From the IMG/VR virus record IMGVR_UViG_2724679172_000015: DNA of 36,413 nt; one strand, 5' to 3'. A program made the position numbers and the translations under genes. Source of the DNA: a virus. Taxonomy: Duplodnaviria > Heunggongvirae > Uroviricota > Caudoviricetes. Below, piece by piece: positions 34,777 to 36,413 of this stretch (positions are counted from its first letter, which is position 1; the number at the start of each line of letters is the position of its first letter). Below the pieces are notes generated by a model, which had not been told where the DNA came from, searched no databases, and saw only the letters and a program-made list of their open reading frames with translations.

Positions 34777-35571
34777 ATGGGAAACCTGAATGAAACAGAA
34801 AAGTGGGAAGAAAATATCTATCAACTGGAGACATCAGATCCGGTTCTGGGTGGTGCAGACGGGATATCAAATCGAGCCCCCCGGCAACTGGCAAACAGGA
34901 CGAAATGGCTGAAGAAGAAAACGGAGGAAGCCGCACAGTCACTGGCTGAACACGTACGTTCCCGTAACCACCCGGACGCGACACTGACAGCTAAGGGGTT
35001 CACCCAACTGAGCAGTGCCACCAACAGCACCTCTGAAACGCTGGCCGCCACACCAAAAGCGGTCAAGGCTGCATACGACCTGGCAGCCGGCAAGGCGCCT
35101 GCCAGCCACACTCACCCGTGGAGTCAGATAACGGGAGTGCCTGCGGCTTCACTGACGGCAAAAGGCACCGTACAACTGAGCAGCGCCACGGACAGTCAAT
35201 CAGAAACTGAGGCTGCCACGCCGAAGGCTGTGAAAATCGCGTATGATCTGGCCCGGGGAAAATACACAGCCCAGGATGCAACAACGACCCGTAAAGGGAT
35301 CGTACAACTGAGCAGTGCCATCAACAGCACGTCTGAAACGCTGGCCGCCACACCGAAAGCGGTCAAGGCTGCATACGATCTGGCAAACGGAAAACAACCG
35401 GCAGATGCCACGCTCACTGCTCTCGCAGGACTTGCCACTGCAGCAGATCGGTTGCCTTATTTTACCGGAGCAGACCGCGCAGCGCTGGCAACCCTTACAG
35501 CTATTGGTCGCGCGATTATCGCTAAGGGCAGTATAAAAGATGTCCTCAATTACCTTGGATGTTGCGTTTAA
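34777..35571 (+). CDS. Tail fiber protein, proximal (constant) part with three internal repeats
   Basis: 264 aa; GGGAG RBS; three repeats of QLSSAT.S.SET.AATPKAVK.AYDLA; terminates 18 bp before a gix-like site. Confidence 0.7.
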   Translation: MGNLNETEKWEENIYQLETSDPVLGGADGISNRAPRQLANRTKWLKKKTEEAAQSLAEHVRSRNHPDATLTAKGFTQLSSATNSTSETLAATPKAVKAAYDLAAGKAPASHTHPWSQITGVPAASLTAKGTVQLSSATDSQSETEAATPKAVKIAYDLARGKYTAQDATTTRKGIVQLSSAINSTSETLAATPKAVKAAYDLANGKQPADATLTALAGLATAADRLPYFTGADRAALATLTAIGRAIIAKGSIKDVLNYLGCCV

Positions 35572-35586
35572 TTACATCGTAAGGGC

Positions 35587-35612
35587 CGCATAAAAACGTT
35601 GGTTTGGGGGAA
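35587..35612. other. Candidate Gin/Hin/Pin-family DNA-invertase crossover site (gix-like)
   Basis: CGCATAAAAACG-TT-GGTTTGGGGGAA: right half matches the invertase half-site consensus (reverse complement TTCCCCCAAACC vs TTATCNNAAACC), 2-bp core, weaker left half; lies exactly at the fiber constant/variable boundary. Confidence 0.4.
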
Positions 35613-35621
35613 GGCTCTGCA

Positions 35622-36077
35622 TTGCCTGTTGGTGTACCGGTTCCATGGCCCACCGCCACACCGCCAGCAGGCTGGTTAAAGTGCGACGGGCGCGCCTTTA
35701 CAAAAGAACAATATCCTGTTCTGGCCAGAGTCTACCCGACCCTCCGTCTTCCTGATTTACGCGGTGAGTTTATCCGTGGATGGGACGACGGGCGCAAGAT
35801 TGACGAGGGGCGTAAGTTGCTTTCATGGCAGAAAGGTACACTGGTCGGCGGTCATGACGATAACGATTCTTCGCTGGATATCTCGTACATGAGTAACGGA
35901 AATAATATTGACTATGGCGGCGATAAGGTGTTTGCGGGGAATTACCGTAGCGATTATTTGTGGTACGCAATTCTGGGTGGAACAAACAGTCGCGCAAAAG
36001 CCGAATTAAACGGAGCATTCTTTAACATAACCCGCCCCCGCAATATCGCGTTTAACTATATCGTGAGGGCGGCGTGA
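35622..36077 (+). CDS. Tail fiber distal receptor-binding cassette (phage tail-collar domain), probably TTG-initiated
   Basis: PVGVPVPWPTATPPAGWLKCDGRAF...YP.L..LPDLRGEFIRGWDDGR is the classic tail-collar motif; no ATG start; TTG at 35622 follows GGGGGAAGG by 7 nt; frame opens at 35583. Confidence 0.5.
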   Translation: MPVGVPVPWPTATPPAGWLKCDGRAFTKEQYPVLARVYPTLRLPDLRGEFIRGWDDGRKIDEGRKLLSWQKGTLVGGHDDNDSSLDISYMSNGNNIDYGGDKVFAGNYRSDYLWYAILGGTNSRAKAELNGAFFNITRPRNIAFNYIVRAA

Positions 36078-36083
36078 TACCGT

Positions 36084-36413
36084 TCAGCTGGCAAGTGCCA
36101 GTGGCGCTTCCGGCCAGCTGATTTCAGGTGCCGTGCTGATATCCAGTGCGTTCAGCTCGTCGATATAATCCAGCACGGCGTTCAGTTTTGCCGTTTCTTC
36201 TGGTGTCAGACTGCGACCAGCACGCAGTTTGAGGTTGATAAGATCGACGGACGCCATCGCCTGTTTCACCCGTTGCTGGCGTTGCTGTCTGGCAACCTCC
36301 AGTTCTGCGGCTCGCTGCCGTTCAGTATCGGTTACCCACGCCTCACCGTTCCAGGTATCCCATGGCGTGGCCGGCTGTTTTGTGGTGGTGTCCGCCGGGT
36401 AATCACCCGGTTG
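36084..36413 (-). CDS. Tail fiber assembly protein, C-terminal part (partial; N-terminus beyond window edge), inverted relative to late operon
   Basis: Minus-strand frame is open from the window edge to the stop at 36084; C-terminal pattern WNGEAWV.D....TSTAPEISWPEAP resembles Tfa/Mu U family proteins as I recall them. Confidence 0.6.
   Translation of the reverse strand, partial: QPGDYPADTTTKQPATPWDTWNGEAWVTDTERQRAAELEVARQQRQQRVKQAMASVDLINLKLRAGRSLTPEETAKLNAVLDYIDELNALDISTAPEISWPEAPLALAS

Follow-up and report, generated by a model that had tools for sequence, protein, structure and literature searches.

The Min system of p15B and the C-Cin system of P1 (Sandmeier et al. 1990; Iida et al. 1990) contain more than two crossover sites (six in Min) and bring tandem 3' fiber cassettes, devoid of start codons, behind a single constant 5' part. 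In a chromosomal counterpart, prophage Phi2 of E. coli EC958, the invertible segment measures 2,067 bp and lies in an inverted repeat of 227 bp, and PacBio contigs were recovered with the tail fiber segment in both orientations (Forde et al. 2014, PMC4134206). Only the two outer crossover sites, between which this segment lies, were listed for this prophage, namely TCCTCAATTACCTT GGTTTAGGAGAA and GAGAGATAAACGTT GGTTTGGGGGAA (PMC4134206).

The locus considered here lies at the right end of a 36,413-nt stretch of viral DNA, referred to throughout as the window, which is most of a Mu-like transposable E. coli prophage of the EC958 "Phi2" family. Membership in the same family as Phi2 of EC958 (E. 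coli ST131) is reflected in a common constant fiber part, an alternative 3' cassette (A) and a tail fiber assembly gene (tfa) and, judging from the close relatives, in a second alternative cassette (B) and a 190-aa invertase. The motifs TCCTCAATTACC and GGTTTGGGGGAA of the window are halves of the sites named Phi2_5prime and Phi2_3prime, the core is TT in both, and the inverted repeat measures about 227 bp. The window copy differs in coming from another strain, in being cut by a contig end, and in containing a 44-nt patch that, as deposited, breaks the fusion of cassette to constant part.

Comparison with the Mu G segment and its Gin invertase reveals a similar mixture of shared and divergent features. 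As in Mu, the phage is transposable and the invertase gene sits at the right end; Resolvase and HTH_7 domains are present in the 190-aa recombinase family protein of the relatives, whose match to the Gin structures 4m6f/3uj3 reaches E 2e-93. The crossover site likewise falls within the fiber gene, where the junction peptide reads ...QNLGLQE in Mu and ...LNYLGLGE here, and 12-bp site halves flank a 2-bp core. On the other hand, the cassettes here are short tail-collar domains of about 160 aa rather than Mu Sv/S'v, only one cassette comes with a chaperone gene (in Mu there are two, U and U'), up to three sites and three cassettes are present, and the core is TT instead of TC/GA. The early region and tail module also differ, with the PhiKM relative classed as a Bcepmuvirus and baseplate genes that resemble P2 V/W/J/I.

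With p15B Min and P1 C-Cin, the Phi2-family switch shares the presence of more than two sites and of tandem cassettes without start codons behind one constant part. Unlike those systems, it resides in a chromosomal Mu-like prophage and not on an IncY/P1-type plasmid, and its sites are fewer, two or three against the six of p15B. The P1-like plasmid pCUVET20-PYO4.3 carries four cassettes in one array, in which the junction sequence recurs at 94% identity, and a Cin/Min-like recombinase.

Fiber gene and crossover sites in the window

The window represents the last 36.4 kb of the draft contig LRPA01000001.1 (GCA_001550005.1; 357,580 bp), and its right edge is the contig end, the record running just 2 nt further. 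The contig is listed for two samples, and no paper citing the accession was found. When the last 9.2 kb of the two sequences were compared (9,218 bases), they disagreed at a single position, 35559, where the record has N and the window A; this N is the only non-ACGT character among the compared bases of the contig. Related prophages, 97-99.9% identical, are found at many E. coli chromosomal sites, including those by aroA, yebS, uvrD, yahO, fliD and udp. Their proteins include an rve transposase, a MuB-like ATPase, Gam, GemA, Mor, a Mu-type gp27, portal, F and gp36, and their baseplate is of the P2/Mu type. The short baseplate V gene (175 aa, versus 198 aa in relatives) was considered as a sign of prophage decay and dismissed, the 175-aa allele being common to many intact relatives.

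The features of the fiber region are as follows, with related loci cited by L numbers where they must be told apart.

34777-35558, plus strand: constant 5' part (Sc) of the tail fiber gene, up to the crossover core; three Phage_fiber_2 repeats (Pfam PF03406, E 5.5e-60)
35543-35558, plus strand: primary crossover site, comprising the left half TCCTCAATTACC (35543-35554), the core TT (35555-35556) and the first GG; the right half GGTTTGGGGGAA is missing
35559, no strand: ambiguous base (N) of LRPA01000001.1, given as A in the window, precisely on the novel junction CCTTGG-N-TGTTGCG
35560-35598, plus strand: 3' end and 3' flank of silent cassette X (...VAFNYIVRAA, with its own stop TAA at 35591-35593); the flank is the left half of the internal site
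35587-35612, plus strand: internal crossover site CGCATAAAAACG-TT-GGTTTGGGGGAA, between cassettes X and A; an identical site is present in L004
35599-35797, plus strand: conserved 5' cassette repeat, made up of the core TT and some 197 nt (encoding GLGEGSALPVGVPVPWPTATPPAGWLKCDGR...); gives rise to both the inverted and the direct repeats of the switch
35601-36077, plus strand: cassette A, one of the alternative receptor-binding C-termini of the fiber (Pfam Collar, E 1.1e-15), with no start codon of its own
36084-36413, minus strand: 3' part of the tail fiber assembly (chaperone) gene, encoding the last 109 of 204 aa and truncated where the contig stops; belongs to alternative cassette B

Much of this layout had been perceived in an initial annotation made from the window alone, and its description of the individual elements stands. 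The constant fiber gene was said to end at 35571 with all three plus-strand frames closed. The fiber ORF indeed has possible starts at TTG 34771 and ATG 34777 and stops at TAA 35569-35571, and further TAA codons occupy 35580-35582 and 35591-35593; the first positions of these codons (35569, 35580, 35591) leave remainders of 1, 0 and 2 on division by 3, placing them in three different frames. The distal ORF, described as a tail-collar domain devoid of an ATG, spans 35604-36077, has in-frame TTG codons at 35604 and 35622 and matches Pfam Collar. The tail fiber assembly gene that was seen to run off the edge on the opposite strand is a Caudo_TAP-type gene on the minus strand from 36084; the complete chaperone gene in L001 (8677-9291) matches Caudo_TAP at E 5.5e-28.

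The two putative recombination sites noted at the same time have also proved well founded. The 26-bp element likened to gix, hix and pix, CGCATAAAAACG TT GGTTTGGGGGAA at 35587-35612, is a real internal crossover site, and the weaker candidate half-site, TCCTCAATTACC at 35543-35554, agrees with the published primary site of EC958 Phi2, of which it is the left half. The same left half is found in Phi2_5prime of EC958 and in the Sc site of L001-L005, L007 and L032. A pattern derived from the sites of relatives, AAACGTTGGTTTRGGRGAA, has one match in the window, with 0 mismatches, against 0.01 expected by chance, and a complete 26-bp primary site is absent from the window at up to 3 mismatches. The complete internal site and the partial primary site (left half and core) share the same orientation. 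In the internal site, the left half comes after the cassette X stop codon, and this internal-site architecture recurs in L002-L004, L007, L011, L014 and L015, while the end of cassette X as it appears in the window is also present in L004, L005, L011, L014 and L015. The copies of the 5' repeat in cassettes A and B are 199 nt long and show no difference in the closest relatives; in N61, the cassette heads form a 229-nt inverted repeat that is 96% complementary.

The switch in related prophages

In the relatives, the fiber is encoded by one ORF that continues over the site (...KDVLNYLGLGEGSALPVGVPVPW...), and the junction with a tail-collar cassette reads ...NYLGLGEGSALPVG.... In-frame fiber fusions of this kind comprise 432 aa in L001, 530 aa in N61 and KE50, and 540 aa for the Sc-X form in L004. 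Cassette A is found fused in the 432-aa ORF of L001 and in a 418-aa ORF of L020 and L021, and lies silent, adjoining the invertase gene, in L008-L015. Cassette A is normally joined in frame to Sc.

The gene order after the fiber gene of the relatives consists of a tail-collar cassette on the plus strand, tfa on the minus strand, one or two cassettes on the minus strand, an inverted site, the 190-aa recombinase, and then host DNA. The recombinase is located about 0.9-1.4 kb past the equivalent of the window edge. When N61 is mapped to the end of the window, tfa starts at about +285, cassette B extends to about +800, the inverted site falls at about +810, and the invertase gene runs from about +870 to about +1440. 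The initial annotation had interpreted the window edge as cutting into a probable invertase-controlled tail fiber switch resembling those of Mu G, P1 C and e14 P, and had predicted a recombinase gene, a second crossover site and an alternative cassette beyond 36413. The relatives bear out both statements: the region is the left border of a Gin/Cin/Pin/Min-type invertible tail fiber segment, and every close relative has all three elements within 1.5 kb of the equivalent of the edge. Their invertase gene is identical to Mu gin at 183 of the first 240 nt, and the inverted partner site, GAGAGATAAACG TT GGTTTRGGRGAA on the other strand, agrees with the published sites. The chaperone gene of the relatives follows cassette B only.

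The relatives show how the switch normally operates. The constant 5' part of the fiber gene ends in the 26-bp crossover site, and the right half of that site, along with the next 200 nt or so, recurs as the head of each of two or three promoterless tail-collar cassettes (A, B and X). A Gin-like serine invertase from the right prophage end catalyzes exchange at the 2-bp TT core, pairing the Sc site with either inverted site, and the exchange places a different cassette in frame (...NYLG-LGEG...).

The presence of both orientations, which the initial annotation had proposed as a check, was observed in relatives only: in the EC958 PacBio reads, in 327 genomes with the flipped form, and in a comparison of EC958 with S2. 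The flipped form was generated in silico (Sc-B-tfa on one strand) and found a single match of 99.6-99.9% in many genomes; at least 80% of the flipped arrangement is covered in each of the 327. Inversion of the EC958 sequence, with the Sc core and the internal core as end points, leaves 1 mismatch to S2 over 3.5 kb, as opposed to 924 mismatches in the unflipped state. S2 has its prophage at the same aroA site, and the equivalent of the internal site is a precise end point of the inversion. Because flipping EC958 at the internal core reproduces S2, the type of internal site present in the window is used in nature.

Three-cassette versions of the locus occur in several states: Sc-B-tfa followed by A and X on the minus strand; Sc-A followed by tfa, B and X on the minus strand; and Sc-X-A followed by tfa and B on the minus strand. 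These versions are a three-way switch like Min of p15B. Degenerate switches also exist in the family, with L005 lacking A, tfa and B and L029 interrupted by an IS21 element.

Origin of the 44-nt patch

The window departs from its relatives only in a stretch of 44 additional bases, 35559-35602, which separates the Sc half-site from cassette A. The patch contains the final 33 coding bases of silent cassette X plus AAAACGTTGG, the flank being the left half of the internal site. The tail of cassette X and its flank at the junction explain all three stop codons and both of the "sites", one of which has lost its right half while the other takes its left half from a cassette 3' flank. The frame between Sc and cassette A is closed by the patch only, and removal of 35559-35602 restores the in-frame fusion; fusion of a cassette to Sc inside the fiber ORF is found in the relatives but not in the window as deposited.

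The source of the patch becomes apparent on alignment with L004. Window positions 35293-35558 equal L004 3344-3609, and positions 35559-36413 align with L004 4080-4934, ungapped and at 98.4%. The window is therefore the L004 arrangement (Sc-X-site-A, then tfa on the minus strand) minus 470 bp (L004 3610-4079), with a novel junction, CCTTGG-x-TGTTGCGTTTAATTAC, in which x is position 35559. The left break point, ACC/TTGG, falls where the Sc, X-end and distal contexts converge, which is a repeat/unique boundary, and the right break point, CGCCCCCGCAAT/GTTGCG, lies at a 12-nt run present at the end of both cassette X and cassette A.

Identity to the window is complete over 1,999 nt (33560-35558) in two contigs from human-gut metagenomes, L020 and L021, and is 99.8% from 35596 onward. 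Neither contains the 44 nt, and the complete 418-aa fiber of each is the same as that of the window after deletion of 35559-35602. A 271-bp query across the junction was compared with 5,426 complete E. coli genomes, where the best matches spanned 227 bp, corresponding to a junction that lacks the patch, or 640-740 bp, corresponding to one whole cassette more, and never 271 bp. Neither an "A" pattern nor a wildcard pattern of the exact junction had a match in the GTDB representative genomes or the JGI metagenome contigs, and the "A" pattern, the only one applied to IMG/VR viral contigs, had none there; owing to the N, "A"-pattern scans of these three sets would miss LRPA01000001.1 itself. Searches for the exact truncated fiber products of 264 and 266 aa also returned none, likely because the recorded product has an X at the GGN codon.

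Taken from the assembled sequences, the best explanation for the patch, to which we assign a probability of roughly three in four, is a scaffolding or gap-filling join across a repeat-rich region of heterogeneous orientation, rather than a biological design. A culture containing several orientation states would give rise both to reads in which Sc is followed by cassette A and to reads in which the end of X is followed by cassette A, and a single N would be left where two extended contig ends did not overlap. The true local sequence would then be either the canonical Sc-A fusion, as in L020/L021, or Sc-X with a silent cassette A, as in strain SA53-3. A 199-nt exact repeat in a culture that was presumably of mixed orientation would put the region beyond the resolution of short reads, and the same difficulty would account for the contig ending inside the switch. 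Several observations give the patch the look of a misjoin: the only N in 9.2 kb sits exactly on the junction, both break points are at repeat/unique boundaries, the exact repeat lies downstream, the window equals L004 without 3610-4079, near-identical L020/L021 have an intact fiber and no patch, and the junction is absent from the other sequence sets scanned.

There are points on the other side. Simple collapse of direct repeats by the assembler was rejected as the sole cause, as it would give the canonical junction, and the artifact consequently needs a presumed scaffolder or gap-filler step. The 12-nt run shared at the right break point is short for a boundary in a k-mer graph, the single N can be a low-quality base in a genuine deletion junction, and the two samples listed for the source contig would favor a genuine junction if they were independent isolates. 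Such a junction would represent a non-site-specific deletion of 470 bp from a prophage arranged as Sc-X-A on the plus strand, tfa and B on the minus strand, and gin, with loss of almost the whole of X and of the primary site's right half. We regard this as unlikely, at odds of perhaps one to four. The alignments to L004 flanking 3610-4079 are clean, the parental arrangement is natural in L004 (and would arise in L011 and L015 after one inversion), and L005 and L029 demonstrate that switches in this family do degenerate. Yet the deletion would have had to place the only ambiguous base of 9.2 kb exactly on its junction and both end points at repeat/unique boundaries, it would lack microhomology if 35559 is A, its junction was not found in the other sequences searched, and two other samples yielded identical phage sequences in which the fusion is intact. 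Were the deletion real, the fiber would be truncated (...NYLGCCV, then a stop) and the prophage fiber defective, or "locked off"; A and B would still flip through the internal and distal sites, but fusion to Sc, and expression of either cassette, would be impossible. Gin itself is unlikely to have produced the junction. Deletion between two directly repeated sites was rejected because its product is the canonical in-frame Sc-A junction, and deletion or inversion at a quasi-site within cassette X was rejected because the junction is offset from the core by 2 nt on its right side and X has no TT core at the corresponding position (CCCCGCAATGTTGCG).

The initial annotation had offered a functional interpretation, in which the fiber is split into a shaft terminating at 35571 and a second polypeptide made from cassette A on its own, with TTG 35622 as the start codon and GGGGGAAGG as the ribosome-binding site. 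It is true that the gene caller of the source record also placed a 151-aa gene at TTG 35622, and that annotations often list silent cassettes as genes of their own, labeled "phage tail protein". Nevertheless, the nucleotides in question are in-frame GLGEGSAL codons of a continuous fiber ORF in hundreds of relatives. What was taken for a ribosome-binding site is a conserved recombinase half-site, bound by the invertase and encoding G-L-G-E-G, and the TTG triplets are internal Leu codons, so neither the proposed start nor the notion of a distal cassette made as its own polypeptide is supported; relatives fuse the cassette in frame, and here a 44-nt patch has been joined in through an N. There is no promoter-like site nearby, and a search for an independent promoter for cassette A found none. 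The spacer is recognizable as the tail of another cassette rather than a dedicated intergenic region, the arrangement is unique to one draft contig carrying an N, and a 151-aa product would be without the part that anchors it to the shaft. Separate translation by design accordingly seems very improbable. Slightly more improbable still is a combination in which the junction is real and cassette A, made as a 151-aa tail-collar protein from TTG 35622, attaches non-covalently to a shaft ending ...NYLGCCV; that would amount to a two-polypeptide fiber with a tip still exchanged by the invertase through the internal site. The split-fiber arrangement is, then, probably not a genuine feature of the genome, and an assembly misjoin is the reading we favor.

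Consequences for assemblies and for the Phi2 family

Short-read assemblies tend to break in invertible, repeat-rich tail fiber regions, or to acquire single-N patches there, and caution is warranted in interpreting them. A patched assembly can mimic a new gene arrangement, in which a frame is closed, a receptor-binding ORF stands as an orphan and a ribosome-binding site seems to be present. Conversely, single Ns and contig ends in the tail fiber regions of phages flag invertible DNA.

The reading of this locus as an invertase-controlled switch is correct, and the system is one already known, that of the EC958 Phi2 family, of the same kind as Mu G, P1 C and p15B Min. What is added to the literature, in a small way, is the use of the internal site in nature, which makes the Phi2-type segment a multi-site, Min-like switch and not a simple two-state one. 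Three-way host-range switches of the Gin/Min type occur widely among the Mu-like prophages of E. coli, ST131 included, and are shared with P1-like plasmids.

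Chaperone gene and fibre cassettes

One of the features of this family is the uneven pairing of tail-fibre assembly (tfa, chaperone) genes with the alternative 3' tail-collar cassettes A, B and X that can be joined to Sc, the constant 5' part of the fibre gene. The tfa gene follows, on the same strand, cassette B only (8677-9773 in relative L001, 5091-6217 in relative L032, and 36084-36413 in the window), and cassettes A and X/X' have no chaperone gene in cis, so tfa lies antisense to late transcription whenever the Sc-A or Sc-X fusion is expressed. Cassette A and tfa converge in the window, where just 6 nt separate their stop codons (36077 and 36084). 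This arrangement differs from that of phage Mu, in which each orientation has its own chaperone gene.

RefSeq (PGAP) calls the fibre gene pseudogene fragments ("missing N-terminus and C-terminus") in three relatives, L001 (7576-7854), L003 (7576-8025) and L007 (3177-3626). Despite these calls, 7372-8670 of L001 is a single uninterrupted ORF of 432 aa. The annotations were likely caused by the internal Phage_fiber_2 repeats, whose number differs from strain to strain (fibres of 418-543 aa), together with the invertible 3' end. The silent cassettes are annotated as stand-alone "phage tail protein" genes.

Reduced switches and an allelic baseplate gene

A degenerate switch is present in relative L005 (NZ_CP091756.1, 4108-4190), where the internal and distal crossover sites, inverted relative to each other, are separated by only about 31 bp. 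This switch has lost both cassettes A and B as well as tfa; its fibre is locked as a 640-aa Sc-X fusion, and the invertase gene has been kept. In another relative (L029, GCA_019397165.1, 12972-16588), an IS21-family element (IstA/IstB) interrupts the prophage 3' of the portal gene; this remnant holds only the invertase gene and a single tail-collar cassette.

The baseplate V gene of the window was also considered as a sign of decay:

32178-32705 and 32488-32648, baseplate V gene, 175 aa, 3' segment replaced

The protein has 198 aa in L001-L003, but the 175-aa form is common to many intact relatives (L008-L016, N61 and KE50). It is an allelic module, and decay was rejected.

Source contig and a P1-like plasmid

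The source contig (LRPA01000001.1, 357 kb) is listed for two samples, representing either the same entry deposited twice or a further isolate, which is relevant to whether the junction of Sc with its adjoining patch in the window is real.

Related cassettes are carried by a P1-like plasmid prophage, pCUVET20-PYO4.3 (NZ_CP115379.1, 2837-8274), with darA and a holin gene close by. Its array comprises four tail-collar cassettes, one tfa and a Cin/Min-like recombinase, and is about 94% identical to the window in junction and cassette-head sequence. Exchange of cassettes appears to take place between Mu-like prophages and plasmids of the P1/p15B type.
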